Assembly (NCBI GenBank): GCA_000934665.2
Contig: KZ538346.1
Coordinates: 1-64,000 of the forward strand
Direction: 5' to 3'
From: Catajapyx aquilonaris
Lineage: Eukaryota
Length of the DNA: 64,000 nt
Part shown: in pieces, positions 1 to 42,223 of the stretch
How the letters are laid out: every line of letters begins with the position of its first letter
Position numbering within the stretch: position 1 is the stretch's first letter
Position numbers and translations under genes: made by a program
The notes under the pieces: model-generated
Seen by the model: only the letters and a program-made list of their open reading frames with translations
The model's database searches: none
What the model was told of the DNA's origin: nothing

Positions 1-410
1 ATTTTTGAAAGACGTAATTAAAGCGATTCGCCGATTTTCGTCAAAATCTGACAACCCAAGGGTCAGGGGGCTCGGTGAATTGACATGGAATGACCCATAA
101 GGAATTGATTTTTAGATTCTTAAAAACTATCAAATAGGTAGGCATTTAGGCCCTGAAAACAGTCAAAATAGGGAGTAAAAATCAGTCTGGTCCTAATTTA
201 TTTTAATTTCTACACAATCACAGCCTATACTCTTGGCCATGGAATTTTGCAGCACAGTAACAAACTAGAAGTTATTCCAAAGGGAGCTTCACTCCTCACA
301 AAAGTGTACACTGGATCACCGGATCACCATCAAAGGTGTACACGGATCACCAGAAGTGAATACCCCCTCGAGTTATTCCATATTTTCGTTGGTTAATTGC
401 AGTTATTAGG

Positions 411-770
411 GAGGTGTAGATGGCCGAGATGGTAACGTCTCGGCTTGCTGAGTGAAAGGCCCCAGGTTCGATCCCCGCCTGGAGAACTTTCCTTTCACCT
501 GCGTCAGGAGGGTCTCTGACCTGCACCTTGGAGGTGTCTGGCAACCTAACCTCCTGGGGAACAGCACATGACCCCTTTACCGACATTGCACTTGCACCAA
601 TATAGTTCCCTCACCAAAAATCCCTATCCCTACCCTACATCCTTGACTCCTTGCACCAGTGAATGAAGATAATAGGAAAAATGGAGTGAAATGGTGGTAT
701 TCAACCCCCCTAAAAAGGCTCAGCCTTATCACGGGGTAACGTAAAAAATAAATACACAGTTATTCAGTGA
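411..770 (+). mobile_element. tRNA-derived SINE (family A)
   Basis: A-box TGGCCGAGATGG, B-box GGTTCGATCCC, A-rich tail; related copy at 50641-51010 (-). Confidence 0.75.
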
Positions 771-1969
771 CACCTGTTTGACAGTACATTTCTACATGCT
801 GAAAATGACCTTTTGAAGTCACACAAAACAAATGGATCATACATTCATACTTGAAAAGTGAAATGTCTCCTATATACAGTCAGTTTGTCTGGCATGCCTA
901 CTGCTTCTTCGCTCGTCACAGGTTGAAGTGGGTGGGATTCCTTGATGCAGGAAAACCCTCATAACTCTCGAAAATCTTACAAAACGGCGCTGCATCAAAA
1001 TGGTAGAAATAGGTGCAAAATAGGCGCTAATAGGCCATTTAGGTCCCAACGTCTGAAGTAGGCAATTTTAGGCTCTATAAAACTACGATATTTGAGGTCC
1101 TTGTCATATGAAACTGATAGATACCATATTTTGTTTCCGGTGTTCTGCCTACAAAATAAAAAGTAGGTAGAAACCTAGAAATCCGTTCTTTACTGATTTA
1201 TATTAGTTTCAAAAATATTCAATACAAGGCGAGAAATGGTCTTCTCAGGTCCACTTTAGCCATACTTACCATAATCGGGATTGAAAGAGGATATCCATAC
1301 CTACCTAGCCAGTGTGCATTATTGACACAGGGATTATGCAGACATAAGGTATTTTTTAAAATGTCTAATTAAATAGGTCATCATTGTACAGGACACAAGA
1401 AAATTTGTGCAGAGAGGAAATGGTTCTCCAGTGTGCAGCATAAAAGGTTGATGGAAAGATTGGGCGCCTAATTCTTCTATAACATTTTGTCTAAACATGG
1501 GCATTTCGTTTCATTGCACAACATCTCCATTTTAGTTCGGTAAATCAGATTATATTACAGTCTTCACACGTTATTATCACCGATGTACAATAAGGTCTAA
1601 CAACAATCATTAGGGATTAGGTGCTATGATTGTTCTGAAACAGTAGTAGTGCCATGTGGAAAAAATCCCATGCAAGATTTCGTGATTTATTGCTGTATTT
1701 GCAATATATTTATTTCACATAAACTTCCCAATTTGGGAAACCGCTACCGTATGTGAATAACACCGTCAACACCCTGTTCGATACAGAGGAGCCTAGTGGC
1801 AGATTTGAGAACTTCTTGGGAGGAAAATTTATAGGTTATAGGAAAATTTATAGGCCCCACTTTTATATAGCCCCACGTTCTAGCCGATTCTAGCAAAGCA
1901 AAAGCACGCCTCTGTGTTGCTCAGCCCACGGACACTTATACCTGCTTATACTACGTTCTGGCGTTATCA

Positions 1970-2259
1970 CCTGCCGAGGGATTACGCACCGGGTGGCCAC
2001 TTGAGATCGCTACGAGACATTTCCCAAGGCTATCATGTGGCGGCCCTACCGGACTAAGGCTGAACTTTACAGGTACGAAGGGGAGGGCTACATTGGGGGG
2101 CCCAACATGGCCGCTGGCGGCCATGTTGGGCCAGCATGTAGCCCTCCCCTTCGTACCTGTAAAGTTCAGCCTTAGTCCGGTAGGGCCGCCACATGATAGC
2201 CTTGGGAAATGTCTCGTAGCGATCTCAAGTGGCCACCCGGTGCGTAATCCTTCGGCAGG
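1970..2259. repeat. Near-perfect 290-bp palindrome (hairpin MITE-like)
   Basis: Left half is the reverse complement of the right half except for a few mismatches; centre near 2115. Confidence 0.9.
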
Positions 2260-2491
2260 GGGTGGGTGGGGAGTGACCTAACCTGAGTCTTCAATAACCA
2301 TGGTGTTGCTTTTTCAGCATTGTTCTTCCCATGGTTCTTCCCTATCTACGACACTGGAAGACTTGAGCGATGTTGCCAAGCATGTTGATGATCGGCTACC
2401 GTCCAGGTACCGTCGGCCAGACCGTCGGCTACACTTTTATCAAGCCCTAGGCCCTGGAACATGATTTGGCAACAAGGAATAGCTCTTCAAA

Positions 2492-5400
2492 ATGTCAGAT
2501 GCCGGTGAGTCAGGTCCTCCGTCATATGTGAACGTCTCCCACCACGCTCCTGCTAGCTTCGCATCGCAATCATCAATCCCGATCTCGTCCCTTTTCTCGG
2601 CGTTGGAGACACGTAGGATAAAAATCGAGGACTCGCATAAGAAGCAAGTGAGCGCAGAGTGCGTCATTGATGGAAAGTCAGGAGTGCTGCTGCTAGAAAA
2701 GGCATCATTCGGCACGCAGTTACAACACGTGGCTGGTTTGCTCCGACAAGAGGAAGATAAGTTGTCTGTACAGGAGCTGCTTACTAACGATATATACCAC
2801 AATTTACTTTTGGAGGTGCCAGGTTATCCCTTCACTGGTGAGTGTAATTCTTAATATTATGTTTTCTGGAGGGTCTTAACTCAGAAACTAGGAGGTATGG
2901 TGGAGGGATGAAGAAGAAAGGGGTAAATGGGTGGAATTTTCGTCTCACTGATAGTTACTGCTAACTTAGCAGTACCATTGCCAACACTGGTACTGCTAAG
3001 TTAGCAGTAACTATCAGTGGGACGAAAATTCCACCCAATGTTTGCTTTCGCTTACACATGGTTACTGAAAATCCATGTTTTTCCGGGAAAATGACTAGTG
3101 TGTTGTGTAGCTTGAGACATGTCGGTAACACCATGTACAAGTGGCATGCATAGTGGAATTAATTCCAAGACCTGGCAGTGCCAAACATGGTGGCCATGTT
3201 TAGGAGGTGCAGTATTGATCCTGTATCTGTCGAAATTCAGGCATAGGTCGCATTTCTGGAGCAAAACCACATTTGGCCTTGAAAAGATGAATGTGCCGTT
3301 CTTTTTGGGGGAAGTGGAGGGGTCACGCCTTGAGCATAGGTACAGAAGGGCAAGGAAAAAGGGCACAAACAAAGAAGAACAAAGAATTGCCTATTTCTTT
3401 GCTTGAATGAAAAGTGTGGGATGGGGGAGGGCATTGCAGTCATTGCTGGAACATCTTTGCTCTCCTCAGTCAATGAAAGTGAAACTAACTTTATATACAC
3501 AAATTTATCTCTCTGACCCCTCCTTTTTCCCCGAAGGAATGATGTCATGTTTGAATTTTTGTGGCCATGTGTACATGCCATAGAGTCAAAATTGCTCTGC
3601 CCTCAGTGGATGTTTTGAAAGTGATAAGATTTAGGTTGTAAAATCAGGCAGAAAAGTGGGGAAGCTTCTAGGGAGGAACTGAGTCAAGGAGAGTTTGGTT
3701 TGTTGGCACTACATTACTACGTTACATTACATTACTACAAGAGTCTTAGCCACTTTGTGATCGTGTCTTCTAACCAATAACAAATAACCATGGTCCTCAA
3801 CAATTTCAATATTAGTGGCAAAAAATTGTTTTACATTGTAGCTGTGTGATTTAAATCTGTATTTTGATGGGTAGATGGTGAGAAACGTAAGAGTGCAATA
3901 TTGTTTCTCTTGCCACACATTCAGACTGATCAACATCAGGGCATGCCATGTGTACCATTATTACTTGTAACTATAATGCATTCAGCCTTAGAATAGTGCT
4001 GATGTCACAAGCAAGTTAGTTGTTCATTACAATGTTGATATTTTGGAAGGAGTTTAAAACTCAGTCATGAGGATGGAAATGGGGAGGGTGGGAGCACAGA
4101 GAAAGTGTAGGAGGATGAGGCCCACAAGGGCGGTTCGGAGCCGAGATGACTTGTCATGGCTATCAAATAGCAGGCTGTGTTCATTCCAACCAAAATAATT
4201 ACGTCCAACTATTTAAACTTGCCCAAATCTGATCTCTTGTTGCGATGTGTATAACAGTGTAAATATTTTAATCCACAATACCCTGGCATAACCAAACGTC
4301 CCAAACTGAATGGATTCATTAGGACAGTTATTTTTCATTTACATTAACCTAACAAAACACACATTTGAAAAGAAATACACACAGAAAATTGACCCACACC
4401 CAGACAAAATACATGCTGCTCATGTAACTCCTGTTGACCCCCTCCTGCATTTTTATGATCTGTAATATTCCAAGGACAAATAGGGAAGCACATTTATGCC
4501 TGATTGCACCAACAAAATTACCGATTCGATAGCTCCTAACAGATCCTTAGCAGACGTTAAAAGGGCTATGATCTGTTAGGAGCTATCGGATCAGTAATTC
4601 AGTAGGTGCAATCAGGCATTAGCAAACACCCGCTGAGTCATTCCTGGCAATAGCTCATTGAGGTAGGGAGTAAGTCTCACAGCCCCGTCCCAGGCACGGC
4701 TTGAATGCAAACAATAGAAATTTTTCGTCCCACTGCTAGTTAATGCTAACTTAGCAATACCTGTGCCAAATATAGTACTAAGTTAGTAGTAACTAGTAGT
4801 GTGACAAAAATTCGACCCAAAACTTACTATACATTATTTTGTCCAACCTGTTCTCAGATTTAGTGCTGGGGAAGGGGGATGTCGTTTCTATTTCCCCCTG
4901 CCCCCTGTCGGTAACTTTGGTAAAGCTCGATACCACACAAAGTGACATCGATAGAGCTTTAAAACCTAGTAAAGTTCATATTTGTAACTGTTATAATTTT
5001 CAAATGAAAAGGGTGGAACGCTAAGGTCAAAAATTGGGCTTGGTTCTCCCCTCTCTCGTGATTTTCGCTTCATTCGCATACCTCCACAAATGTACATCGA
5101 CAGAGCTTCAAAACCTGGTAAAAGTCACCCCTCTAACTTTTCCAGTTTTCGAAAAAAAAACACACACGAAGTTTCAACTGCTTTTTGCAGGTGTTCCTAT
5201 TATTTTGTCCAACCGCTGTATAGCTGTCGGGTAAAATCCCTCAGCTGTGACCCTGAGATACAGTAAATTCCCTATAATGTGATACATGCAGAAAATGCCT
5301 GGTGCATGTGATACACATTTTGGAATCTTGCCGGTTATCCATGATGTGATTAACCCTTCCCAAGTTGTACTCTTAGACATTGTCTAGGGTTGTACTATGG

Positions 5401-7768
5401 AGAATAGATTGGTTATAACCGTTTGATAAGCTGATGTTATATTTTAAAAATTATGACTGAATAATTTATTTCCAGGCATCAAGGCAACGTTGACCTACCC
5501 TAGTGAACCTACAACTAGTGAACCTCATGGTGCTGATTCATTCTTGGTCAATGAGACACCTGTAATGTATGACAATGTGACACTGCCTGATCTTACTAAG
5601 CAACCTGAAACCATCCAGGTAGCTATTTTTAACTTAAACCCATTGTTATTAAAATTAATATTAAGCTGGATCAAATGTCTTCATTTTGGTGACTTTTCTG
5701 TAAGCAGAATTTATGGAACACAAATTTTAACAAAACATTGTAAAATTTAATAATTTTAGAATGGAAATAAGGCACATCTGGTTGCTAAAAGTGATGTCCA
5801 TTTACAGTGGGTGAAGCACAGTTTGAGACTCAAGGACAAACCAGAGCGGATTGCATTTGAGGATCCTGATCCCAAGATTGGTTTCACATTGCTTCCAGAT
5901 TTGAAGTGGGACGGCATCCAGAATAGCAAGTTACACCTTATTGCTATTGTTCACCTTGAATCAATCCAGACATTACGAGACCTTACAGCAGAACACTTGC
6001 CACTACTTGAAAACGTGAAGGAGAAAGGGACGGTGAGTTGTCAATCTTTCATCCTTCCTTCCTTCTGTTAATCACTCATATCATGGCTTGATCTGTGTGC
6101 ATTTGTGATTCACATGACCCTGTATGCCTATGGGATGGTTCATGATGCAATACATTATACATAATTATCTTGAATGGTCTTAACTGCGTAGCATCTTCAA
6201 ATATGGATAACTTTATGCTAATTTCAATTGCTCATCCATTATTACAAATCTCTCAGCATGTAAAAAAGCAATAATCAAAAATGGTAATAAATAAGTAATA
6301 AAGAATAAATACTACGAGGGCGAATCAGAAAGTAATTGAAAACTTTTTTAATTCGGAAGTTTCACTAGAGAAACTGAGATATACATATGAAAGGGCAAGT
6401 CTTCCTCTAATTTTAAAAATAGTCACCATACAATTTGGTGCATTTGTTCCATCGGGACACTAGCTTTTCCATACCCCTGCAGAAGAAAGAGTCAGTGTGG
6501 GTGGGAAGCCAGTGGGGGATGGCCTCTTTCACTTCCTCGATGTCGCTGAGGTCTTGAGAAGCTAGTGCTTCTTTTTTGGTCCCAAGAGATGGTTTTAACC
6601 ATGGTCTACCATCTCTTTGGACCAATGAAGAAGCACCTGGCAGGTCAGAACTTCAGCAACATTGAGGAAGTGAAAGAGGCCATCCCCCACTGGCTTCCCA
6701 CCCAGCCTGACACATTTTTCTGCAGGGGTATGGAAAAAGTAGTGTCCCGCTGGGACAAATGCACCAACGTGTATGGTGACTATTTCTAAAATTAGAGGAA
6801 GACTTGCCCTTTCATATGTATATCTCAGTTTCAGTTTCTATAGTGAAACACTTCTGAATTTAAAAAGTGTTCAATTACTTTCTGATTTGCCATCATACAT
6901 ACAATCCTGGTCCAGGTAGTGCTTTAAGCCCTTTGTGGGGTATGTTATGCAGGCCTTTAGGTTTTTTAAAATTCAAGTTACATGTTCTGAACATTTTTCA
7001 AAGGATCCAGGTCCACAAGAAGGGGGTCAGTGGGAAGGGAGGTGCAAGTGCAGTGTCATTGATGGTCATTTGGTGAATTCTCCTGCCTGGTTAGTCTCAA
7101 GGAATTCCACCCAAGACAACCCAATTCTGTACGAGATGAAAGGGGGAAAACTCGGCGTGAAATTGAACCTGGGACCCTTCCATTTGTGGGCATGCATGTT
7201 ACCACAGTGCCACTCTCCTTCCCCATAAAATAATTATTACATGCAATAAATTGTACTAGAGCTCATTGATTACACACTATTTATTAACCTAAGCCAGTCT
7301 ATCAAATCAAACAACCTGTATGGTAGCCACATTTGTGATGTTAATTATTGTAGTAATAGTTAAGAATTTAATTTTTCTTTTCTCCAGTGATATGCATGTT
7401 CACTGGTCACATTTTGTTCTACATTTTGATGGTTCTCTAATTCTTTGATTCCTTCACAGAAAGCAATCTGGGACAAGTATGGTCTTTCATCACATCAGCT
7501 GCGCATCTACCTCTACTACCCCCCAACCTACTGCCACTTCCACGTCCACTTCACATATCTGAATTTTTCTCCTTCCCGAGTCAACACTGAGAAGGCTCAT
7601 CTGCTTGAGACAGTCATCAACAACATAAAATTAATTCCAGACTATTATCAGCAATCAAGCATTCCAGTTGTGGTGCACAAAGGTACGACACTTTACCAAA
7701 GTTACTTGAAGGCAGGATATAATTTTCAAGATGGCTCTAATGACAGCCCTGATGGAAATCAGACCTAG
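2492..7768 (+). CDS. DCPS: m7GpppX diphosphatase (scavenger decapping enzyme DcpS), ~340 aa; exons 2492-2837, 5476-5618, 5808-6032, 7460-7768
   Basis: GT-AG junctions keep frame (phases 1,0,0). Motifs LLLEK, NDIY, IKATLTYP, ETP, FEDPDPKIGFTLLPDLKWDG, LRDLTAEHLPLL, HIT triad HFHVHF, EKAHLLETVINNI match the DcpS family. Confidence 0.93.
2928..3037. mobile_element. ~110-bp palindromic MITE; diverged copy at ~4717-4820
   Basis: GGGTGGAATTTTCGTCTCACTGATAGTTACTGCTAACTTAGCAGTACC and its reverse complement. Confidence 0.7.
4496..4619. mobile_element. ~120-bp palindromic MITE
   Basis: ATGCCTGATTGCACC...GGTGCAATCAGGCAT arms. Confidence 0.65.
6313..6897. mobile_element. Foldback mariner derivative made of two inverted 3' ends, in DCPS intron 3
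   Basis: TA-CGAGGG terminus; both strands encode the mariner C-terminus FFCRGMEK(L/V)VSRW(N/D)KC...GDYF. Confidence 0.85.
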
Positions 7769-8810
7769 GCTGGGTGCCGCCAATATTTTTGTGAATATTT
7801 CTGGCTCAAAATTGAGCCGGGTGGAAGTAAAGGCCAACAGTGTTCACATTGAATGGACTGAGGGTGTGAGTGAGCTTCACTTCGAAAATGTGCGGCTAGT
7901 TCCAGATTCAGTATCAGGATTCCAAGCAGATGATGAGTATATTTCTTTCCGAACCAATGTGGAGCCTCCACCTCTACATGGGTCAGTTTCCAGTGAAATT
8001 ATTCCAGTACCATCCAGTGAGTTGAACGTGAAGCTTGCATGTGGGAAGATTGCCAAAATTGAAGCAGATGTTGATTATCATCTTTGCTGTCGCCGTTGCC
8101 ATAATTGCATTGCACAAGTAAAATTTGCACGAGTATTACCACTCCCTTCGGATTCATGGGAGGAGGACTCCTCCATGTGGTTCTGCCATCCTTCCTCAGA
8201 TGGAGTCAAAGTTGTTCCAAGTGGTGACACATGTCTCTATGGACCTTGCTTTTGGAGATTTAGGGAATCAATGCTGAATCAGGACAGGGTGACATTGGAA
8301 GCATCACAATTGCGATGCAAACATTGCTTGGGTCTCATTGGTGAGCCACACAAGGATGGTGTGAAATTGTGGAACAGCTCAGTATCATGGAACACAGACA
8401 AGTGCCAATCTCCTGAAGCTCATCCATTAGATGACTTTAAAGCCTTATTGGAGAATGTTCTTAAAGAAAATGCTCATGTGATGTGTAAGCTTTGTGTGGA
8501 AGCAGAATCTGAAGGACATACTACACAGTATTTGCTATTGTGGGTGATGGATAAGAGCTTAAAAGTGTATTTAAGGTGTAAGGAAGATGTAAACATGCAA
8601 GAAAAGCAGGTAGTGAAGGTGTTGTTTCAGCATGAGGACCATCGTTCAGAGCTTGTGAAGATGTGGCAACGGGACCTGTGTGTCCATAGAGTGCAGGTGT
8701 CGAGACTGATTTTCCAAGATGCTGTTGAGTCACTAATGGAGAACTTACAATTTGTACCTAAACCGTTCAGAGTTGCAAATGATTTTCTCATCAGCTATGT
8801 TTGGCAATAA
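7731..8810 (+). CDS. UBE3D: E3 ubiquitin-protein ligase E3D-like (HECT_2 family), 359 aa, intronless; overlaps the DCPS 3' end
   Basis: Long ORF with CxxC pairs (CRRC, CKHC) and RVLPLPSDSWEEDSSMWFCH, resembling the HECT_2 LPSxxW...WxCH signature; C-terminal VVKVLF and VPKPFRVANDFLISY. AATAAA at 8806-8811 overlaps the stop. Confidence 0.85.
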   Translation: MALMTALMEIRPRLGAANIFVNISGSKLSRVEVKANSVHIEWTEGVSELHFENVRLVPDSVSGFQADDEYISFRTNVEPPPLHGSVSSEIIPVPSSELNVKLACGKIAKIEADVDYHLCCRRCHNCIAQVKFARVLPLPSDSWEEDSSMWFCHPSSDGVKVVPSGDTCLYGPCFWRFRESMLNQDRVTLEASQLRCKHCLGLIGEPHKDGVKLWNSSVSWNTDKCQSPEAHPLDDFKALLENVLKENAHVMCKLCVEAESEGHTTQYLLLWVMDKSLKVYLRCKEDVNMQEKQVVKVLFQHEDHRSELVKMWQRDLCVHRVQVSRLIFQDAVESLMENLQFVPKPFRVANDFLISYVWQ

Positions 8811-9564
8811 AGTTCAGAGAACTTGTTAGTGAAGTGAAAAAATGACTTATAAATTTTGGGAATGGGTGGGAATGCCAATTCTTTTACTAGCATATTTCCC
8901 TGGAAATTACGGCATGCAGGTATAAAATGAGATTGACTAAGGAGCTGTGAAAAAGTCGGGCAGTTTTTGTGATTTCAATCTTGCCGTGAAAACTATTGGC
9001 AAGGATGTGTTCCAGGATCAGTTTTGTCACTGTCACTTCTAGAAGATCTTGTGCCTATCATTATCAGAAGCTGAAGATAAACTAAATTTTTTCTTGTTGA
9101 GTTTTTAAGAATGAGTTATGAAAATGAGGGTTAACAATTCGAAAAACTGGACTTTTTGAAACCGTTTACTGCCCTAGGAGGAAATTGAAAGGTACAGGAA
9201 TTTCTATTTCCATTGTTACAGCATTTTTAGATGATGCCAAATTTTTTGAGGCACATAGTATATACTGAAACTGATCTAATTAAATTCTAGTATGCACAGT
9301 GATAGTTGGACCATTGTAAAACCCTGCTTGAAGTGTTGCCATATGTGAAACCAGCTTGACTGGTCATTGATTTCATTTAATGGCAGTTTTGTAGAGTATT
9401 ACAATCCTGCAGATGCCATTTTTCTCATCTCCGACGAATTGACAGGTGCTCAAAGTTTCTCTGACTTATCCTAGTAGAATATGAGCACATTTTGGCCATA
9501 ATGATTGCTTGATTTGGTGAGATGACAACAAGAATGACTTCCAAACACACTAGTTGACCATTGA

Positions 9565-9802
9565 TGGCCATCTTTGGCTTCGTCTCAGGTGGAATTTCCA
9601 TAGACTAATCCACCTGGGGGAGTTCACAAAATGACCACACCCAAGACATTGCACTGCACTTTGCACATCTCCTGTCATCCTGCCTGTGGGCCCGGGCATT
9701 ACGTAAAAATGATCCAATATATGTACAAGACATAAATAAAGGTCCGTGCTATATAGGCCTACCTCTGATGAGGTCAAGCACTACCCGCATTATTATTATT
9801 AT
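9565..9802 (+). mobile_element. 5'-truncated SINE (family B) with (TAT)n tail
   Basis: Body matches 48047 family (GGGGGAGTTCACAAAATGACC); flanking TSD ACTAGTTGACCATTGA. Confidence 0.7.
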
Positions 9803-9806
9803 ACTA

Positions 9807-10821
9807 GGGAAAACCATACAGTGACGGGCAGTTTAGTGCGTTGGTCTCAGTAATACATGAATATTCTCACCTTTTCTTTTCACGTAGATGTTCTAAAATA
9901 TTTTTCTAATGACTGAGGTTGTCCCCATTCACATTGCATCAAATTCACTCAAATCGATCAGAATGTGTGTATTTATTTAAATGCACAAAATATCCTACCT
10001 AAAAGACAGTAATGGCCACCCATCCAGATAGTAATGGCCAGGTGTCAAGATAGTGATGGCCATGGCAGCAAAACAATAGTCTCTCGACCGTAGGAATCAA
10101 AGTAGGAACCCCATCGTATTAGGAAGGTAGGCCTAACTGATGTGAGATAAAGCCACTCAAAAGCCTGTAAAGGTTGTCAGGAAATATGACTGATTATTTT
10201 ATTTTGCAAGTATCCGTCACATACAAGAATAGGCTTTGGCCGTTACACACAATAAGATAGGCCTATGGATTTGCTATTGCTGCGAATTTCCTCCTAAATA
10301 ATTGCTGTCATTTCTCTCGAAGAATAACTCGCGTGATCATGATACTTAGGCCAACATATGTGGCATTCAATTTTTTAAAGCATAACGCAGTAGCCTACTA
10401 ATGTCCGTGGCATGGCCATCACTAAGAAACGTCATTAGATGCTGGCTTGATGCTGGACAGTCATGGCCATCCTAATGAATTCATACTCCTGAACAAAGGG
10501 ACTGGTTTCAATCCCATGCTTCAATAAAGCACCTCTAGACCCATACTTTCATATACCTCACATTGCTTTCGGGATATTTATGAGACCAGAAACACACTTA
10601 CAATGCAAGAAAGTCCTTAAGAAAAAAGTTAACATTTACCAGCTGCATTCCAACATGGCCAGTAGGTCTCTGTGTCAGATTCCATTACTGCTCTTGCAAT
10701 GCCTGCTGTGGATTGATTTTTGACCTAGTTCATGCCAGGGGCCACGGGTGTCACACCATGATCATTTATTCATGTTATGTCATTTACACGGCGCAGTGGG
10801 CCATCACTGTACGGTTTACCC
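9807..10821. mobile_element. Non-autonomous TIR DNA transposon, TA target
   Basis: TIR GGG(T/A)AAACC(A/G)TACAGTGA, internal repeated TAATGGCCA motifs; a terminal fragment recurs at ~42909. Confidence 0.7.
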
Positions 10822-12535
10822 TAGTTGACCATTGACAAGATGCCCCTGATGAGAATGCAATACATCAGTGAAGGTAGGTTTCTGGTCCCATCCCCACACC
10901 CTGGAGAAAAAGGAGAATATCATGGTTTAGCCCAGTGGTTCCAACCTTTTACCAACTGTGACCCCCTAAACATGTTTCCATAAAATGATAAATGTGCGAC
11001 CCCTTCCTCCCCTCCCAGGCCCTGTCTACAACTGCCCCCTTTCCAGAAAACATACACTCTGTACGGCCGCAAAAATTGTTCAATTGACACAAAAATTGCA
11101 AAAAAAAAAAGTTTAACCAAGGCTCGCGCTGCCTGCGACCCCACCTACTTTTTTGTGTATTCCCTCTCTCATGTTGGTATCAAATATACCATTATAAATA
11201 CATGAACACAAGCCTAAAGCAGCTAAGGGTCCAAAAATAGTCAATTAATTTGAGTAGGATAATGGAATGTCAGAGAAGGCCTGCAGTGTCTCCAACTTTA
11301 GGCTTGGGACTGTACATTCACATGTGATGGTTGAAGTAAAACGAGTGATTGTAGATAGAGCAGAAATATGGCCTACTGCAGTGTGTTTCAATGAGTTGTC
11401 AGAATGAGTAGTAACTAGTGAATACTGCCAGTAGCTTGTAACATAATATGCATTATTTTCTGTGGAGCTGAGAATTGATTGGGATAACAATCAAAATTAT
11501 GGATATCCTTTGTAGTCTCTATAATTTTTATGCATCAATGTGACAGTCATATTTTGGGTGTGTAAATCCTGAGTTTGACGTCCTTCATGCAGATAATACA
11601 GGTATTAGCATTCCTGGTATGGTAGCTAGCTAAAGCAATAAGGTAAATCATTGAAGATACAGTTTATCACTTTGACAATATTGAGCTATTAGTAACATCT
11701 TATCCTGTCATCTCTGACGCATGTTCTATTGCGCTTGAATGTGTATCATGTCTTTGGAGATTACTTCTGTGACAACAACTGACTGGTTTAAATTACCAAA
11801 GGTACCTCCCTTCTTCAGCTGGTCAATGGCTCAACCATGGTCTTATACTCAGGTCCAGCAGACACTGATGTAGGCATCATTGCTATCTACAATATGTAAT
11901 TTCGATCCTCAATAGAACCTAATGACTAGTTCATGTGCATTTAACCCTGTTACCCTTGCCAGTTAATCTTAGTTAGAGGACTGGGATTAATTAAACTGCC
12001 ATATTTTAAAGCGTTGACAATCATCAGTCAAGGGTTGCTGAAGCTCTAGGGCCGCTGGGAGTTACCTGTAGCAGTTATGCTTCTACAAATGCTATGTTTG
12101 CCAAATGTTTTGTAGATATGACCACGGGTTCCAGCTAAGATTGTTGTTTCATCCGACCTGGTGGAACCAGCCATTAATTGCCATTAATTTTGCTTCTGTT
12201 TAAAGTCCAGGCCCAACCAACAAAGTGTTGATAGCAATATTTTTTGGGGACACAGGCAACCTTGCCAATCTGTAGTCATCACACCATCAGTGAAACACAT
12301 CCTGCCAGTTAGCCTCTTTGGCCTATTCATGTTTACACCATTGTAAAATTACACTTCAAAAGAGCTCTTTGAGTGAAAAGATCGTGATGTTTTCCTGATT
12401 GTTGTGCCAACAAAAAGGTTGTAGCTCTATCTTTCAATTTCCCTTGTTTAATTTAACTGGAGAAAGAAAAAAAAACAGCAGATGTAATCAGTTACCGGTA
12501 CTTACCTTTTTCTGGCAGTTATGCTGTGATGTACC

Positions 12536-12766
12536 GAAGCAGGTTGGCATAGTGGATAAGGCGTCCGACTGCTAATCGGGAGGTCCTGGGTTCGAATCCC
12601 GGGGTCGGCAACCTTGACCGTGGTTTTCTGTGGTTTTCCACGGTCTTTCGAGGATAATTCCGAGGTCACTTCCGTATAATAGGCCACAGCCGCTTCCTTC
12701 CTTCCCTATCCTTGGAGGTTGAAAGGCAATGCTGGGCCAACCTCCTTAAATATCAATTATAAAAAG
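12536..12766 (+). mobile_element. tRNA-derived SINE (family C); copies at ~55340-55563 (-) and ~61960-62187 (-)
   Basis: TGGCATAGTGG A-box, GGTTCGAATCC B-box, shared body GGTTTTCTGTGGTTTTCC...GGCCACAGCCGCTTCC. Confidence 0.8.
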
Positions 12767-15700
12767 TTATGCTGTGATGTATTATGTTTTCTGTTTCATG
12801 TAAAGTTGATGAGAAGTGGTGAGTGAAAGTGCAGGTGAACTCTGTTTGTTTATTGAAACATCCTGTGAGAGAATAAAGCGAATCAACTGATTAAACTATC
12901 AAGGAAATAATTTATTTGCTTGTGGATAGCTGATATATTAAGCATATACACAGTTTGTGAAAAGGAACATGATTGTGAAACATGACATGATCCGAACGAT
13001 TGCCTCCCAAAAACTCTGTGAATCTATCACGCCATGTAAATAAAAGCAATCCATTAAACTGGGCATTAATTGATGTCATGCAGGTTTAACTGACATTCTT
13101 GCCTTGGCTGCTCTACTTCTGTCCCTCTGGAGGGGCAGCTAGGAGAGCACCTGTCTTGTCAGAGAAACTCTGAGAACAAAATAATGCATTTGGTTCTTTT
13201 TACCAAAAATATTAAAACCGTTTTTACTGAAGCGGACGTCTATTGCTGTTGACCAATTGCACCAGCTTGAACTCAAATCCTTGGATCGTCTGCTTCCTTC
13301 AGTGGATGGCTGGGCGGGCGACTGGGGCATCTGGAAAATCGTGGCGGGGAAGATACACGCTTCACCTGCATCCAGACTTCTTGGCCTCTGTTCTCTATGT
13401 CAGAACCGGTCAGAACCAGCTGGGAGCAGCTCTCGCACCAACAGCAGCCCCCCACCACTCTGGCTCCGGTCACCTTCGGTCGAACATTTGAAATGGTGCC
13501 TAAACGTCTGGACATGTCTGCACTGCACCAATAGGAGCCAAGTTTTGCGTCCATTTAACAATTACACATTTTTTTCTATCGTAATGCTACACAAGACTGT
13601 AATTTAAAATGAGAGTTTAAATATTAATATTAGATATTTATTCGATCAGGCTTTTTTTTTGTTTACTGATGCCACCTCTGGGCCGTTTTATAAAACTAGT
13701 GCAGAGACCTCCGCAGTCGCCATCTATTCTAAATCAATGGCGGTGCACGGGTGGGTTCGGGCTGGTTCGGGTGGGCTGCTTGACGTCTGCTGGGGGTCGC
13801 AGTCTGTGACGTCTGCGCCCTGCGTTTCAGCAGCAGATGACGAACGGCAGCCCCAGTGCTAAGGGGTGAAGAACCCATGTTGGTTGACGGAGGGAGGGAA
13901 GGAGAGTGACGTTTAGGTAGGCCTGGCCCATCCACCTACGCTGGCTGCTTGCAACCGACAATAATCAGCTGACTTACTCCCTGGGATGATCCATCAGGCA
14001 TAGCCTCACCTTAGGGAGATCCACCACCCGGAACTAAAGGTGAGGAAGGATTTGTGTTTAGGTGGCAAGGACAGTTGAGGGGGAGAGCTGGGTGGGCATA
14101 TTGTTAGTTAGGTGCTGAGGGAGAAGATACAGGAAGGGTGAGCAAAGAAAATGAATAAAGAGCTCTTAAGTGAGACATGCTGTCTACACTTGTGATTACT
14201 GAGGGACTGTCATAGAGAAATGCTGTGAAGAAAGGGCTGGATAAGAGTAATTCCAGATGGAAGACTGCAATTGGACAAGGTGTCAGACATCAGATTCTTC
14301 ATGTAGCAAAAAATGTAGTAATATCTAATGAATTAATTTGTGCCTCCAGTATATTACCAGTTGATGTTACATATAAACAAAAGTTTTACAAGTGTTTAAT
14401 AAAGGCAAACAGGTTAAGAGTAAGACATATGTTACAGAATTAATCAGATTTTTAAAATCATGTTTCATGCAATATGCATCTAGATCTTACAAATACGATG
14501 TTTTGTTGTAGAATCTTGGGAGGAAGGACCTGATACTCTACTATTTGTTTCTCCAGAAGGCCTAGTACTTTAATAGTGTATTTGTAGAGTTTGAATTGAC
14601 GGAAAGAAATGTCATTCTGTACCACTACATATCTTTACTGAAGGAATCTCACAGGTTGCTTTTGTTTTTGGTTTTCATTGGTTTGTTTTCTGAGGAAGCA
14701 TAATCTGCAGTAACTCCTGCAGATCAAGATATAAGCCACAGCTATTAAAGTGGACCTGTGGGTAAAATTAGGAATTAAGCTGTAAAGGAGACATTGAGTA
14801 ATGGGTCAACTAAGATGGAAGAAGGAGAAGGGTATCTCCTGAGTGGGCAAGGAGAAGTTGGTATATCTTACTATGTATGAAGCCCCTTGGAACGTGTGAT
14901 GCTAAACAAGTGGTGTTGGTTAAGGGGCAACAACAATGCTGGCTACAATGTTCGCCGCTGCCCCTGTGGCTGGCACAAGCAGTGGCGACGCAGGGGAAAT
15001 GGTAGAGATGAGCGGACTGGAACAGTTTGTGCGGATGACACTGGTGGGAGGCGGGGGAACTGCCGTCGCCTTCCCTCACCGGCTCTCAGCTTACATTTAT
15101 GATGGCAGATAAGTAGCTGCCTGGGCCATGAGAGAGCGAAAGAGAGAGAGAGAGAGAGAGAGAGAGTTGAATAATCTATAGTCTTATTGCCATACAAGTC
15201 CTATGCCACTTTGCATCAATTTAGCTTTTGTGAAGTTAAATGAAGAAATATAAATGCTTTTGTTGAAAAACAGTTGTTCTGTTGCTCATAGGTGGTGTGC
15301 CATATAAACCAGTTTGCCAGTAATAAGTTAATTAGTTTTTTGATGCTATAGTATATCTTTTGTCATTGATGTTTCATGCATGTAGAGGTACAGTGGACGA
15401 GGAGAAACACCTCAAGAGGAGGCCTACATAACTTAACCTTGCTACAGTTAAGCCTCATTCTCGATGATCTCTCCCTTCATTGCAGTTGTTCTTTTCTCTT
15501 TCAAGAAAATGTGACTGTTTGTACAAACTGGGGAAGTGGGTAAAGAAAAGTGCCTGCCCTTTTGCATCACATATAACCAGTTTTACTCCCCTTTAAACAC
15601 AACACATGATTGCAAAAATCATGTCCTTTATTGGTTCATCACATTCATGAGAACATACAATATATTTACACATTGACGTCTGTCAAATCTTTATCACTGG

Positions 15701-16823
15701 TTTTGTCAGTAGCAGTTGCAGAGTTGCAAGATTTTTTTATAATGCTTCAGATGGATGGACTTTGTGCTGATAATTTTCTACCTAACAGTGGCCACTTGAA
15801 AAAAATTGCTCACAATGAAAAGTCAATGCAATTCAGGATGGTGTTTTTAAAGCCTTGTCTGATGGCATCAACTGTAGCATATTGAATACCATGTTAAATT
15901 CACCAAATCCACCCACAGCACAATGAATATATACAACTTTGTCACTGCAGTGATAGACGTGGGAGGCACACTTCAGGTTGGCTAATGCATGAAAATATCA
16001 ACACTTTGCCATGTGGAGCTTATACTGTACTCCTCTTGAGGTGCCTCTTCCTCATACTGATGATATAATAATAGCTTTGTTTGTATTTAAAAAGTTCTGT
16101 AATAACTTTCATTATTGTAGTGCCATGGATGATGTATACACTTTGTCAGAAATAAAAGAGCATGCAGATAGCTTAAGAAACATATCAGAGAGGCAATTGG
16201 CAACAGATGCACCAAACGCTTGTCACACACATGCTTGAATCTCTCAGATACATTGATTTGTTTGTTGACTTTCCCTTTTCATGCATGGCCCATGTCAATA
16301 TTATTGCCTCATTACTTGTTATTTACAATTTACGCACACAGAATTTACACTTGGCTAGCATGCAGTTATTAAGCAGCATATCTACAAATATTTAATGACT
16401 ATTTATTAATATGTAAGTTTATTTGGGTAATGTAGGCAGACTGGTTTTTGCAGAACATCATCCAAATATGTTGTTATGGTGCCCTTTGGAGGCTGATTAA
16501 GAACAGTGCAAAGTGGACATAATTGCATAGACTTAGTAGCCTAATTTTTAGAGCTTGGGTTCATTCTTAACTAGAGATGAATGAGTGTGAAGGTTGTCCA
16601 GTGCAAACATTATTGAAACATGTTAGCCTGCAAGTGCATCCAAATATATTTCTTGAGTAAATTACATGATTATTATTTTTCCATATTTCAAGGCTCAGTG
16701 AATAGGCTTACAAAGACTGAATGCAGGGTGGGGGAAGATTGACCTTGGATTCCATTCATGCAGTGTGTCTTGCAATAAAATTCTGTGAAATCGCTGATGT
16801 GAGGGATTTAAAAAATGTGTATA

Positions 16824-17037
16824 TACAGGGTATCTCAACTTTTTTGTCCGAACAATTATCGGAAATATTGCACTAAGCTTCTTATTTTTTAGCAGTGACT
16901 TGCAACCAGTGATGCTTCCCTGGCTTTATCAGCTGAGGGATGTGCCAGGAATGTTGGGGCATATTCTGGCTACATAGCTAGAAGATACGTAGGCTTTTCC
17001 GATAACTGTTCGGACAAAAAAGTTTAGACACCCTGTA
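16824..17037. mobile_element. Tc1/mariner-type MITE
   Basis: TA-CAGGGT ~40-bp TIRs. Confidence 0.7.
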
Positions 17038-17487
17038 TAAGACAATTTTTAAATTGGTGTGATCTAAAAAAGAGTAACAAAAAGTTTTGTACCTTAGGGC
17101 TGCTGAAAATTAACGTTGGTGTCTGCCTTCACTATACTTTCATATCAATGTTAAATGAATTTAACATGATCATATTTTCAAGAGGCTTGCAGTTATTATA
17201 ATCATAGGGTTTAGCAGGCAGTTGACCCATTATTATTATTGGCCTTGATGGTAAGCTATTGTTGTGCATTACTTGCACCCATTATTCACTATCATAGTTA
17301 CATAAATCCATGCTAACACAGCAAAAATGTCTGCACGATCTTGCCTCAAGCCTTGACTACAATGGCAGCATGTACTGACTGCTTTGTAATTACCGAACAC
17401 ATTGCGAGGATGTACATTTCATAAGTGACAAAAAATAAGGCATGCACTGGCAGATCTGGTAAGACGTGTCTGAACTGTGCATTCTCA

Positions 17488-17829
17488 CAGTGGCGTAGGC
17501 AGGGGGGGGGCCCGGGGGGGCCGGGCCCCCCCGAAATGTTGAGAAAAATCAAGGGGCCCCCGAATTTTCCGACGAGTTTTAGAAAATTTTGAGGAAACCC
17601 ACAAATCCATAATAGGCCTAACGTCTATAACCTATATTCTCTATTCTATAAGACGTAAGAAAGCGGGTTCGATCCAATCAATTCGGGGTCTTAGCTCGTA
17701 CTATCTCACTGTCAGACTCTCGCAGTCGCAGTGTCAGTAATCAGTATGGCACAAAAACAATGAAAATGAGAAATCATTACATTAATACTGTAGTTAGCCT
17801 ATACGTAATCATNCCTGCCTACGCCACTG
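17488..17829. mobile_element. TIR MITE with CAGTGGCGTAGGCAGG termini
   Basis: Terminal inverted repeats; 7-bp TSD ATTCTCA. Confidence 0.75.
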
Positions 17830-18673
17830 ATTCTCAGGAATATTTTGCCTGGCCAGTGTTTGGAAAAATTGGATTATGAGTCAATAACACACTCAAACAG
17901 TCTGTTCCAGACACTGGTCCTCATTTTTCTATTGAGTAACGGAATGAGATGTGCACGCTTTAGTCTTGCAGATAAACTGTCCTGGTGGTTTCCCTTGGTT
18001 TCTCAGTGCAAAACTTGAATGCCTTATCAGTGTTGGGAAGATTGCTATTTGGAAGAAACCAGTTAGATGCAATGATAGAATGTATATTATTTTATTTTGT
18101 AATATTCTGATTTGGAAGGAACTATTGTAATGTGAATCTCATTGATATCCAGGATATTTTGTAAATCAGCAGTACATATTCAAAAATTCAAAAATGATGC
18201 CAAAAAAAGAAATAACAGCCTCATGGATGAATAGATGGTTAGGAGGTATTTTCTAGACTAGCATGACTCAAGATATTGTTATTGTCAGTTAGGAATAAGA
18301 TGGGTATAGGATGTGGATTGCAAAGGGAGGAAGGATTAGGAGAGGGAGGGGTGGCAGGTCCTAGATGTACCACAATGCTGGGACCAACGTTGTTGTGGTG
18401 CAAACCCTACGCAACTTTCGCAGCACCCTTTGTCCAAAAAAGCAAGTCTAATGCTGATACATATTGACCAGTCATGTGCATTTAGTCTTGTCAGTGAATT
18501 GCTGAGAAAGTCAACTGTATTACCTGCTTGGACCAAAATGGAAATAGGGGTAGGAAATTCGTAGGATGCTTTTTTGTTGTTCTGGGCAAGTAGATTTTTA
18601 TGGAAAAGTGCATAGTACATAGTGTGAATGAAAAAAGGGAAAGCTAGGATTGCAAAAGAGTGACAGTCAACTG

Positions 18674-19303
18674 ACAAGGAAAGGTCATCCATTGCAGATT
18701 GAGTTGCTGAATGAAACTTGGCACAATAATATAGGCAGGTAAGTTATTAACTAAAGTGCAAACCATTTCGACCAAGCGCTACAAGGTCAAAAGTTATGAC
18801 CTATCGATGTCAGCCTGGACAGCTTACTTAAGCGGGAAGGGTAAAGCACTGGCAGATGAAAAGAAGCACAGCAAATTAGCACTTCTGCATGTTTTTAATA
18901 ATTATATGTTCAAAACATAACATATTTGTACAATCTGCACATCTCATAAAAGACAAGTTCCTGCATTGCAGGCATGTAGCATTCGGACTACTACTCGAGT
19001 CGAAGCAGAATTTGGAAGGCGTTTGGAATGCACCAGGCCTCTCTTCCAAATAGCCAGCTTTGTAAAATACATACTTAATTAAGTTAACAAACCGAGAGGT
19101 CGAAAACTGACAATGAGTCTGCTTTTTTGAGTGCGATAACTGCAACTTTACTCCTAAGGTAAGCTGTCTGGGTTGACATCTAGAGGTTATAACTTCTGAC
19201 CCTGTAGCGGTGGGCTGACACGGTTAACAACTTACCTGCCTTTATTAATGTGCCAAGTTTCATTCAGCAACTCCATCTACAATGGATGATGACCTTCCCT
19301 TGT
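18674..19303 (-). mobile_element. Non-autonomous element with ~150-bp inverted arms around a Cys-rich transposase-like C-terminal fragment
   Basis: Arms 18674-18835 and 19155-19303 are inverted; ORF 18876-19145 QFSTSRFVNLIKYVFYKAGY...CLQC...RCADC...CFEH resembles the C-terminus of pogo-like insect transposases (from memory). Confidence 0.55.
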
Positions 19304-19947
19304 GAGATACAAGGTTGAAATCTTGTGAATTTGCATTATTTTTGATCATCAAAGAGTTGCAGGAAGAGTTGGGAAATTGCAGAAATGTTTTTCTTTATAG
19401 CTAAGATAAATGAGGCCCAATTGTTTGAGATGCACCATGTTCATGAAAAGTTACATGTAAAAAGATTGATGAGGTACCTATTGTAATTCCCCATGCTACA
19501 CTGTGCAAAAAGTATTGTGCATTAATTCATTTTATTGAATGTCATTTTCAACAAACAAAATGCATTTTTAAAAATTGGGCTTCATCTACCATTTCTATAA
19601 AAATTGAGAAAATTATTCCTGCAGATTCTGTTTACCTTCTGTGACCCTTTGAAGTTTAAATACAGATTTGCAACATTTTGAACTGTTTTCCAGTTGATTG
19701 TCACTCTTTCACAAGTCGAGTTTTCACTTTTTAAATCCACCACTATGTCTGAATGATAGTGTGAAATATTTACCATACATTTAGTGATAATTTATGAGTA
19801 GAGCTTTTGCATGTAGTGGAAAACTGAAAAATTAATGGTTGCCAGTAATATTTGGTTTCTACTCAAGTTTTCTTCCCAACACTGCCCAAATTATACACCT
19901 TAAAACACTGTCTGGAACTTGATTCAATTGTTGCCAACAGTGCCAGC

Positions 19948-22900
19948 ATGTCAGGTGGAGAGAAGAAACGTCGGTCCCAGCGGGGCCAGTGCTGGGAAGA
20001 AGCTGGAGCTGAGTTCTACCAAGAGTCATACCCAGCAGATGTTGACATGGAAGCACTGCAGAGGGACCCGACAAAGATCACCACCATGCTGCCTAGCAAG
20101 CAAGTTTCCAGGACAGCCTGTGGTAAGTTTCACATTAATGTCCATAAATGTGGCAGAGAAAGGTTACTAATTGCAAGCTTTCTGACAGCTCCAACCCAAA
20201 CCCGGCGCCAGAGTGTACGGCGCCGTGCATCTACCAGATCAAAGCGACACAGTATGGCCAGGCGGGGGTCTGCCACTACTGAGGTACACCTGGCATCGCT
20301 TCCTGATTTGACTGATGGTGAGTTTATGTTTCTTATGAGACATGGGTTGAGAAATTACGTGAGTAATCATCATGTTGGTGGACCTTCTCACATCATCATG
20401 GCTTGACACAACCGATGTGGCAGGAAAAAGTCATCCAAAGCGCAATCTCTGTAACTAGGCCACCATTTGAACCTGATGACATAAGTTGCACCGAAGTTAC
20501 CAACATGGGGAAGAGAGAGATCATTTTTTTTCCTCTGAACAGATTGCTTCCTCTACTAGTAAACGACATTTACTTTGACACTTGGCTTAATACTGCATTC
20601 CTTTGCGGGCCCAAAATTGCCAGAAAGCAACAAAACCACATGCGATGTGATGGCCATGATCTTGGGTGCATGACTCATCACCTGGTGTGTAATTCAGAGA
20701 GCATATCATCATCAGGCTGACTCATGGCATTAGTTTCAGAGTGGCTGGGATGCTCTTAAGCTTAATTTTTATTTAATGTATTGATTATTAAGGAAAACTT
20801 CCATAAAAATGTGAATATTTTTGCACAATCATGGATCATAGTTCAAGTATATCATGGAAACATGTATCAAGATAAGTGTAGCATACAGGGTGAAGGGAAA
20901 CTCACGGACAGTCGCCAGGTAGACTGATAGTACTCGCAAAACTAATATAGGGATGTGCAATTAGTTTTGGGCTCCGTTGCATAGTTAATGTGTATGGCGC
21001 CGTCAAAGTTTTGTGACATCACATCTGTTCCCCCAGCTTCTATGAAGCAAAAGTCAGTTCAAGGGCTTCCGGTCCCTTGCCTTGGTCCCCTAACACATCG
21101 TCCATGTGCAAAAGGTGATCAAATCCCGTCAGAGTAAGAATCCGGGTATGACACCCATGCACTTTGTCCTTTTTGCCTCATATTCCACCATCCGGCCCTC
21201 TACACTTTAAGGGCGCCGTACGCATTAACTACGCAACAGAGCCAAAAACTAATTGCACATCCTTATATTAGTTTTGCGAGTACTATAAGTCTACCTGGCG
21301 ATTGTCCGCGAGTTTCCCTTCACCCTGTATAAATTAGAGGTTTCACAAATAGCCATGCAAGTATGTGAAAGTGGTAAAAATTATCTTATACGGTACAGTA
21401 ATTACATTGTTATGCTGATAAGGGCGACACGGTGGCAGAGTGGTTAGCGCCATAGCCTTCCACCTGTAAGGTCCCGAGTTCGATCCCCGGGTCGGACAGA
21501 GGATACTTATGTGGATAGAGTTTCGATGGTTTCTCTCCGTGTTCGCGTGGATTTTCTTGGGGTTCTCCTGTTTCCTCCCGCAATCAAAATCCATCACAGC
21601 ACAGGCAATGATTACAGACTGTTCATGAAAAAGATGATCCCCTAAGAGGCCCAAGGAGGCCTATCACGGGCAGGGCTGGAGAGAGGTCTAGCCGGGCCCC
21701 AGGGAAGACAAAGAATCAGGCCCCCTTCACTCGAACACAGACAGTGACAGTTTCAAATTTTCGTTTGAAATTGCTGTCTGCAAGAAAAAGGCATTGGGAT
21801 TATATCGGGGAACATAATCAGTAGAGTCTGGATTTTTAGGCACAAAAAGACCCAGAAATAGGCACGGAAAAACCTCAAATAGGCACAAAAAAATTTTACT
21901 GGAGGATAATGTAACAGAAAATAAAAAAAGCTATAACAATTGTATAGGCATAAAATATAAATATAAGGTCACAAACCAGAGCAAAACCTGAACAACAATG
22001 ATAAACTGACAGGAAATTACGAAACTTAGGCGAAAGACAAAATGCAAGCAAGTATCACTTGCGCTGGACTCTACCACTTATAGCCAGTTTCCACTTGCAC
22101 AATATGTTGCCAAAATTTAGAAAAATATTTGGCACATGCATCACAGAAACATGATTTGTAGTATTACTTCTGAACAATTTTTGTCCTTTCAGGAGCACAA
22201 AAAATACTCCGCAAAAAAAACCAAACGTGCATATGAAGAAATACGCCCCAAAAGTCCCGAAATTGCTTCAAAAAGTTCGAAAACTATCCCAAAAAAAGCC
22301 TAATAGGCATGAAAAGTCGCAAAACCACGAAATAGGCCATTTTAAAACTATAAAACCTACATTTTCCACATCCTGCACTTATGAAATAAATAGATCATTT
22401 CACAAAACCATCCCAACTGTTAAGGAACTAAATAGGCATTTGCCTAAAAATCTGGACTCTATTTTTTTTTTTTTTTTTTTTTTGCATTACCCCATTGGGA
22501 GTTACATTTCCTTTAGGGGGGTAGAATACCACCATCTGGGTGGAACTGGTATACTAAGATAGTATTTAGTGTGTTCCAAGGGTAGGTAGGAGGGACATCC
22601 CCTCCTACCTACCCTTGGTGCACAGACGTTGATGTGCCGTTTTGTGAACTCCCCCGGGTGGCATATGTGGAAGGATCGCCACCCGAAACGAAGCCAGAGA
22701 CGGTCTTACTCTGCGCGAGATGAAGGGGGGAACCCCGGGTTGGGATCGAACCCGGGACCTTAACATCCGCGGGCGCATACGTTACCGCAGCGCCACTTCG
22801 CCTCCCCACGACTCTAATAATAATCAGTAATAGGCTGTATTTACTGTCCATGCAAATATCTTACAGATGGCTAGGCAGCGATAAGCCGGTAACTTTTGAA

Positions 22901-41735: not shown

Positions 41736-41746
41736 GCCAACTGAAC

Positions 41747-42223
41747 ATGGATAGAAGTGCAACCGCATGGTGGGCCACGACAGTGGTATGCTCCTTTGGG
41801 GTTGGAGTTGTAGCTGGTACCCTAATTCGACGATGGAGTCACATCTTCAGATCCAGATCAGCTGTTGTGGGTCCATGCAAAATGGTACTTGTAGTTCGAA
41901 ATGACATACGCATGACGAAGGGAAAGATTGCAGCCCAGTGTTGCCATGCTGCAGTAGCCTGTTTTCGAAAGGCCAGCGAACAGGCTCCAGAATTACTAGA
42001 TGCATGGCGTAATAGCGGATCTCCCAAGATTTGCTTGAAAGTGGAGAACAAGGAGATACTGTTGGAACTTCATGGGAAAGCTGAGACAGTGGGTGTGATC
42101 AGTGCTTACATTCGGGATGCAGGTCATACCCAGGTTAGCCCAGGGACCATTACAGTATTAGGTATTGGTCCCGCTGAGGATAATGACGTTGATGAAATCA
42201 CTGGTAACCTAAAATTACTGTGA
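41747..42223 (+). CDS. PTRH2: Peptidyl-tRNA hydrolase 2 (Pth2/Bit1), 158 aa, intronless
   Basis: N-terminal hydrophobic anchor, KMVLVVRNDIRMTKGKIAAQCCHA, PKICLKV, IRDAGHTQV, TVLGIGP, ITGNLKLL. AATAAA at 42252-42257. Confidence 0.93.
   Translation: MDRSATAWWATTVVCSFGVGVVAGTLIRRWSHIFRSRSAVVGPCKMVLVVRNDIRMTKGKIAAQCCHAAVACFRKASEQAPELLDAWRNSGSPKICLKVENKEILLELHGKAETVGVISAYIRDAGHTQVSPGTITVLGIGPAEDNDVDEITGNLKLL

Follow-up and report, generated by a model that had tools for sequence, protein, structure and literature searches.

The VP1/VP2 junction of the caliciviruses is a viral termination-reinitiation junction, and in Drosophila the loci stoned (stnA/stnB, reportedly described by Andrews et al. 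in 1996) and Adh/Adhr (reportedly by Brogna and Ashburner in 1997) are said to be classical dicistronic loci with short intercistronic spacers. A further viral junction of the termination-reinitiation type is the UAAUG of influenza B M1/BM2 (PMC3035654). For Drosophila melanogaster, 159 dicistronic pairs are recorded in FlyBase, and 18 gene pairs share coding sequence in different frames, as given in the text and readable supplements of Crosby et al. 2015 (PMC4528330). Polycistronic nuclear loci have also been described for green algae (PMC7896298). Here, a locus is described in which the gene for the scavenger decapping enzyme DcpS and an open reading frame (ORF) for a UBE3D-like protein overlap on one strand and are probably carried by one dicistronic messenger RNA (mRNA). 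It is located in a stretch of 64,000 nucleotides (nt) from Catajapyx aquilonaris (assembly GCA_000934665.2, contig KZ538346.1, positions 1 to 64,000 of the forward strand), which as a whole is called the window in the following. UBE3D/Ipa1 is reported to act on the poly(A)-site endonuclease CPSF73/Ysh1; that it binds or regulates this enzyme, or binds an E2, has been described for yeast, human and mouse (PMC7236606, PMC9385686, PMC11904178, PMC6436931).

Transcript evidence was taken from X1, the one public run found to contain this DNA, the kind of which is not on record, whereas no run recorded as RNA was found to contain it; the evidence consists of assembled contigs aligned to positions 1-20000 of the window. 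In the X1 contigs, each of the three DcpS introns is missing, with joints at the predicted GT..AG sites, so that X1 has the character of a transcriptome. The locus comprises the following features:

2282..2491, + strand: 5' leader of DcpS, minimum extent; an X1 contig begins at 2282, and the true start site may be located further upstream
2492..2837, + strand: coding part of DcpS exon 1 with the N-terminal DcpS domain, start ATG at 2492 (gene model; X1 joint 2836->5475)
5476..5618, + strand: DcpS exon 2 (gene model; X1 joints 2836->5475 and 5615->5805)
5808..6032, + strand: DcpS exon 3, ending on a codon boundary (PF11969; X1 joints)
7460..7768, + strand: coding part of DcpS exon 4 with the HIT motif and the TAG stop codon at 7766-7768 (PF11969; X1 joint 6031->7459)
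7731..8810, + strand: intronless UBE3D-like ORF of 359 amino acids, HECT_2 (PF09814), TAA stop codon at 8808-8810, covered by an X1 contig without a joint
7731..7768, + strand: coding overlap of DcpS and UBE3D, 38 nt counted from the first ATG, with UBE3D in the +1 frame
8806..8811, + strand: AATAAA poly(A) signal over the UBE3D stop codon, the first AATAAA or ATTAAA beyond the DcpS stop codon
8836, + strand: end of the 1516-nt RNA-like contig and likely cleavage site, 25 nt past the AATAAA and directly before a genomic run of six A

The 1516-nt X1 contig, in which 5894-6031 is joined to 7459-8836, contains DcpS exon 3, exon 4 and the whole UBE3D ORF, and a second contig joins 2282-2836 to 5475-5618 (leader, exon 1 and exon 2). 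In the sequence of expressed, spliced RNA, the UBE3D ORF adjoins the DcpS exons without a gap, and we infer that DcpS and UBE3D are present on the same RNA molecules. Arithmetic on the depth table showed that the 1516-nt contig alone explains the X1 depth in the bins 7338-8004 and 8672-9338; no assembled RNA is therefore left over 121 nt of the intron before exon 4, or beyond 8836. The sole X1 joint into the span 7460-8836 is the exon 3/4 junction, and no other joint is listed there, although contigs drop rare variants. In addition, neither AATAAA nor ATTAAA occurs in the window between the DcpS stop codon and 8806, only AGTAAA being found (at 7826 and 8117), so that the DcpS mRNA most probably runs on through UBE3D.

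The profile of the HECT_2 domain (PF09814) matches the translated ORF at 7731-8810 over almost its full length (profile positions 1-367 of 369; 135.8 bits, E=2.3e-39), and for this reason the ORF is, judging from its sequence, a member of the UBE3D/Ipa1 family and no chance ORF. The window UBE3D has two conserved cysteine pairs (C120/C123 and C196/C199) plus C152, and these five residues together with R134-S140 (the RVLPLPS block) are invariant in 14 of the 14 sequences of the UBE3D alignment. Three in-frame ATGs (7731, 7740 and 7752) all precede the DcpS stop codon and give overlaps of 38, 29 and 17 nt, respectively, with the stop codon included. The first begins 35 nt ahead of the DcpS stop codon and has the best context of the candidates (A at -3 and G at +4); with a start there, the protein has a single residue more ahead of the conserved E, M/I, R-P-R-L block than the homologues have. 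Because of this context and the fitting N-terminal length, the overlap is taken as 38 nt. A preliminary description of this DNA, made from the sequence alone, had already given these ATGs, the +1 frame, an overlap of 17-38 nt and an AATAAA at the UBE3D stop codon; every coordinate was re-derived and proved correct, the AATAAA at 8806-8811 overlapping the TAA at 8808-8810.

The DcpS gene is modelled with four exons on the + strand, 340 codons and introns that are all GT..AG. Its exon 1 translation matched the N-terminal DcpS domain (PF05652, 29.1 bits at a cut-off of 25, E=1.8e-6), and DcpS_C (PF11969) was matched by exon 3 (46.5 bits, E=5.8e-12) and exon 4 (24.3 bits, cut-off 24). The histidine triad motif is H-x-H-x-H-x-x; it is intact in exon 4 as H-F-H-V-H-F, which by eye corresponds to the nearly invariant H265, H267 and H269 of the DcpS alignment. 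By these matches, 2492-7768 is the gene for the scavenger decapping enzyme DcpS of the HIT superfamily, a predicted m7GpppN hydrolase. The protein is strongly diverged: in a tree of 27 rows, its end branch amounts to 2.84 changes per column and exceeds the branch of the fungal outgroup (2.08), no row is more than 40% identical to it, and it is placed nearest to the hexapods, without support.

Some further observations concern the DcpS gene. Six upstream ATGs are located within the leader at 2282-2491. A second X1 joint, 5618->5899, omits the first 91 nt of exon 3 and was found at a contig depth of 7.2 in comparison to 26.2 for the canonical joint; this acceptor shifts the frame, so that a stop codon begins at 5902 and, as computed, a truncated product of 164 residues would result. 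Directly upstream of the 5' end of the contig at 2282, a 124-nt inverted repeat (arms 1970-2093 and 2136-2259, 99% complementary, 42 nt between the arms) was detected, which is probably a foldback-type repeat element. Within DcpS intron 3 (6340-6900), where low-depth X1 contigs fall, a 66-codon ORF (6589-6789) is flanked by two sequences that look like an inverted repeat; the ORF resembles the C-terminal end of mariner-type transposases but gave no Pfam match.

A word search found 13 UBE3D homologues, the best of which are 26-30% identical to the window UBE3D, and a profile search of 1.84 billion representatives gave 493 UBE3D matches with a best identity of 31% among the best 150 of the 493. 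At the level of sequence, the window UBE3D is thus without a close relative. Scanning of metagenome contigs with the UBE3D family alignment gave five loci (L001-L005). Three of them are alike (L001-L003), L004 represents a second sequence type, and L005 has only 22 nt of upstream DNA. In the four loci with upstream DNA (4/4), DcpS exons are located directly upstream on the same strand, and a spacer of 26 nt separates the DcpS TGA from the ATG of UBE3D, which is intronless and has 382 codons in L001-L003 but 381 in L004. Compared exon by exon, the DcpS of these loci shares 70-88% identity with annotated DcpS of termites (Zootermopsis, Cryptotermes), and the label termite-like, used here for the metagenome loci, rests on this identity only.

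A further case was found in the springtail Orchesella dallaii. One protein among the 120 listed DcpS relatives (P0122, 740 amino acids, annotated as unnamed protein product) contains PF05652, PF11969 and PF09814 in that order, and this fused gene model shows that DcpS and UBE3D abut on one strand in the springtail. In the model, the DcpS frame is abandoned about 22 codons short of the expected stop codon, and the UBE3D frame is entered 15 codons ahead of the conserved glutamate; no methionine is present between this entry and the glutamate. The real Orchesella UBE3D start is therefore probably at or inside the DcpS tail. The preliminary description had proposed synteny in related arthropods as a check, and the tandem was indeed seen in all four termite-like loci with upstream DNA and in the Orchesella model. 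From these comparisons, the tandem appears to be common to at least the springtail, termite-like insects and the window organism. The distance from stop to start varies only between -38 nt (window) and +26 nt (L001-L004), although the window UBE3D is only 25-31% identical to that of these lineages, and because identity between lineages is as low as about 27-30%, the tight DcpS-UBE3D linkage is judged to be old in hexapod-type arthropods. A search for fused UBE3D forms among longer proteins gave 1820 candidates, none of which scored, and a DcpS domain was present in 0 of 47 UBE3D proteins of at least 385 amino acids among the best 150 of the 493 representatives. Likewise, the longest-contig sizes of UBE3D matches and DcpS matches were compared for shared transcript contigs and gave no coincidences.

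In the termite-like pair, the ratio of nonsynonymous to synonymous substitution rates (dN/dS) was 0.32 for UBE3D, and a pN/pS of about 0.38 (a division of proportions) was obtained for DcpS; both genes are under purifying selection in this pair. Synonymous changes amounted to 5.0 per 106.2 sites in the DcpS 3' exons and to 26.5 per 246.5 in UBE3D, a difference that is not significant (Fisher p=0.10). The spacer is identical at 26 of 26 positions between L002 and L004, which is weak evidence, as such identity is estimated to arise by chance in about 6% of cases at about 10% intron-level divergence. The dN/dS of UBE3D bears on the idea that the UBE3D ORF is an untranslated passenger, for example an old retrocopy decaying in the 3' untranslated region of DcpS. 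An intronless ORF downstream of the stop codon of another gene is what such a copy would look like. The 359-codon ORF is, however, intact over the full HECT_2 profile and has retained the family-invariant residues, an equivalent ORF is intact in two termite-like sequences at the dN/dS given above, and the arrangement is common to distant lineages, so that it is no recent insertion. A passenger is accordingly very improbable.

Another explanation considered is a programmed +1 frameshift, by which ribosomes would pass from DcpS into UBE3D where both frames are open (7710-7765, 56 nt) and form a fusion protein. Coordinate arithmetic revealed that the frame relation is not constant, UBE3D being +1 of DcpS in the window and -1 in L002 and L004, which makes such a fusion unlikely; furthermore, no recognisable slippery site was noted, and the UBE3D homologues begin with their own methionine at a matching position. 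Together, these points leave frameshifting as the least probable of the explanations considered.

The fused Orchesella model is also what one might expect if an acceptor directly before the UBE3D start (AG at 7729-7730, in the sequence ...ttttcaag|ATG) were used in cis- or trans-splicing, which would lead to a UBE3D-first mRNA or to an in-frame DcpS(1-238)-UBE3D fusion. Exons 1-3 total 714 nt from the ATG, and since exon 3 ends on a codon boundary, a splice 6032->7731 would indeed be in frame; X1 moreover uses another alternative acceptor, namely the one at 5899. On the other hand, no X1 joint leads into 7731, and the 1516-nt contig is unbranched there, with the same reservation about rare variants. 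In addition, the tract before the AG is purine-rich, and nothing like this acceptor precedes the ATG in the termite-like spacer. To our knowledge, spliced-leader trans-splicing is not known in hexapods. Use of this acceptor is therefore regarded as improbable.

We consider it most likely, with a probability of roughly 0.55, that DcpS and UBE3D are encoded by a conserved dicistronic mRNA, the second cistron of which is translated by termination-reinitiation or internal initiation. According to this proposal, the two genes would form a single transcription unit. One spliced and polyadenylated mRNA carrying both complete ORFs would start at the DcpS promoter, with its 5' end no further downstream than 2282, and be cleaved near 8836. 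DcpS would be read by normal scanning, and ribosomes ending DcpS at 7766-7768 would re-start at the nearby ATG at 7731; internal entry would be a less likely route to UBE3D. The short distance from stop to start would then be a constrained feature. Reinitiation is favoured because a constant short distance suits it, whereas an independent promoter would not constrain the distance. As the specific mechanism for UBE3D, coupled termination-reinitiation can nevertheless be put forward only tentatively. It is doubtful whether the messenger is obligately dicistronic and has been kept in this form since before the split of springtails and insects, with UBE3D made by termination-reinitiation after a 340-codon ORF. 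Leaky scanning was considered as a further route and rejected: 10 ATGs, the DcpS start included, precede 7731 on the mRNA, which makes it implausible, in agreement with the preliminary description. A complex prediction for termite DcpS (P0016) and UBE3D (P0004) gave 0.00 against a mark of 0.34, with alignments unused, and is uninformative either way.

Several observations weigh against the dicistronic reading. Reinitiation after a long ORF, here one of 340 codons, is generally inefficient, and the junction is not unusually structured (folding z-scores of -0.52, -0.53 and -0.84 in 141-nt windows). A contig over two genes does not establish a single transcript, as the same contig would be assembled if reads from a DcpS mRNA overlapped with reads from a nested UBE3D mRNA. 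The data are from a single run and consist of contigs only, and hence are without 5' ends, strand or local depth. The lack of AATAAA and ATTAAA over 1 kb of the window is, by a rough estimate (about 0.3), not improbable by chance. In the termite-like loci, a conserved ATTAAA is located 132 nt past the DcpS stop codon inside the UBE3D ORF (L002 7585, L004 2438), which may serve as a poly(A) site for an mRNA with DcpS only, or may simply be conserved as part of the coding sequence. Further AATAAA occur inside UBE3D of these loci, and no canonical poly(A) signal was found there within about 1 kb after the UBE3D stop codon; with signals inside UBE3D and none after it, the poly(A) argument does not carry over to the termite-like lineage. 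Finally, in the text and readable supplements on Drosophila, only 45 of the 159 dicistronic loci make both proteins solely from dicistronic transcripts; in the other 114, at least one of the two genes also has a monocistronic transcript (PMC4528330).

Much of this is compatible with nested transcription units, in which a start site within the last DcpS exon (7460-7730) would give a short monocistronic UBE3D mRNA, while the DcpS mRNA would carry UBE3D untranslated and both would share the poly(A) site. The contigs cannot tell nested from dicistronic mRNA, most Drosophila dicistronic loci (69 + 45 of 159) also have monocistronic alternatives (PMC4528330), and the conserved ATTAAA of the termite-like loci could end a DcpS-only mRNA. 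The lack of RNA contigs over the 121 nt of intron before exon 4, however, means that any UBE3D start site would have to be located in coding sequence. An independent promoter gives, furthermore, no evident reason for a spacing of -38 to +26 nt at about 27% UBE3D identity, and no canonical poly(A) signal at which an mRNA with DcpS only could end is present in the window. Nested units are considered the main rival, though less likely than the dicistronic reading.

For the dicistronic reading, this comparison also shows how far the preliminary description held. Its statement that there is no room for a separate promoter was too strong, as a start site within exon 4 (7460-7730) is possible, and its statement that there is no room for a separate poly(A) site agrees with the lack of AATAAA and ATTAAA between the DcpS stop codon and 8806. 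Its central claim of one mRNA for both proteins is partly supported and has gained considerably from conservation: co-transcription is supported by the spanning contig, the missing earlier poly(A) signal and the conserved tandem; that two proteins are made from this mRNA is not established by contigs. We infer the single-molecule nature of the messenger, the absence of a separate UBE3D start site and the mechanism of translation.

If both proteins are made from one mRNA, the locus would offer a natural system in cells for work on the re-starting of ribosomes behind a long ORF, and lineages can be compared in which the two ORFs either overlap or are 26 nt apart. If the messenger were obligately dicistronic, it would be a rare case, conserved over a long time, of cells using a mechanism that is known mainly in viruses. 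A cap scavenger acting in the last step of 3'-to-5' mRNA decay and a regulator of CPSF73 would then be made in a fixed ratio. The pair joins two factors of mRNA metabolism that were unconnected in the literature searched: DcpS clears cap remnants, and UBE3D/Ipa1 is reported to determine how much of the 3'-end endonuclease is present or how active it is. A functional coupling of both proteins is speculation. The second cistron seems easily missed or mis-joined in annotation, since the springtail model is fused and only 1 of the 13 UBE3D homologues from the word search came from an annotated NCBI genome, while DcpS is annotated in termites and a cockroach. Hexapod proteomes may therefore seem to lack UBE3D although it is present.

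Outside of this locus, two 72-nt sequences resembling transfer RNA (tRNA) for serine, tRNA-Ser(GCT), were detected in the window with Rfam (37.7 and 36.4 bits) and ARAGORN at 12539-12610 (+ strand) and 62111-62182 (- strand). The first copy is located within very high summed X1 contig depth (3690 in the bin) with many loose ends, which suggests a tRNA-derived repeat family rather than a single gene. Furthermore, one large exon with a TMC (transmembrane channel-like) domain (PF07810, E=1.3e-40) was found at 25820-31380 (+ strand), and an apparently single-exon gene for the peptidyl-tRNA hydrolase PTH2 (PF01981, E=1.7e-45) at 41723-42223 (+ strand).

In comparison to the viral junctions, the DcpS-UBE3D locus likewise has a long upstream ORF whose end and the next start codon are only some tens of nt apart, which is the spacing the mechanism needs. 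The viral cases depend on an upstream element tethering the 40S subunit, whereas no such element was identified at the DcpS-UBE3D junction, where folding showed no unusual structure and no search for complementarity to 18S rRNA was made. As in stoned and Adh/Adhr, a long first ORF is followed closely by a full-size second ORF on one mRNA; the window differs in having an overlap instead of a spacer, and the partners in these loci are unrelated to DcpS and UBE3D. In green algae, translation of downstream ORFs is ascribed mainly to leaky scanning, the upstream ORFs being weak or short; an upstream ORF of 340 codons with 10 ATGs does not suit this explanation. The green-algal loci belong to another kingdom but are similar in that at least two full ORFs are present on one capped nuclear mRNA and that different species share this arrangement (PMC7896298).

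The overlapping pairs of Drosophila are similar in consisting of unrelated genes on one strand, where the second ORF begins some tens of nt ahead of the stop codon of the first (PMC4528330). The preliminary description had stated that dicistronic mRNAs are known in insects and had named no earlier case of this pairing; the Drosophila class agrees with the first statement (PMC4528330), and for the second, no description of the pairing was met in the literature searched. DcpS-UBE3D is not among the Drosophila cases, CG2091 and DcpS having 0 occurrences in the text and readable supplements of PMC4528330, including the polycistronic gene list. A search for UBE3D, DcpS or CG2091 together with dicistronic or bicistronic gave nothing relevant in the literature searched, subscription journals and FlyBase being outside its scope. 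The overlapping dicistronic class is already known in Drosophila, and the DcpS-UBE3D pairing is, on our analysis, a probable further member of that class. Compared with the Drosophila pairs, its linkage is common to lineages at least as far apart as springtail and termites.

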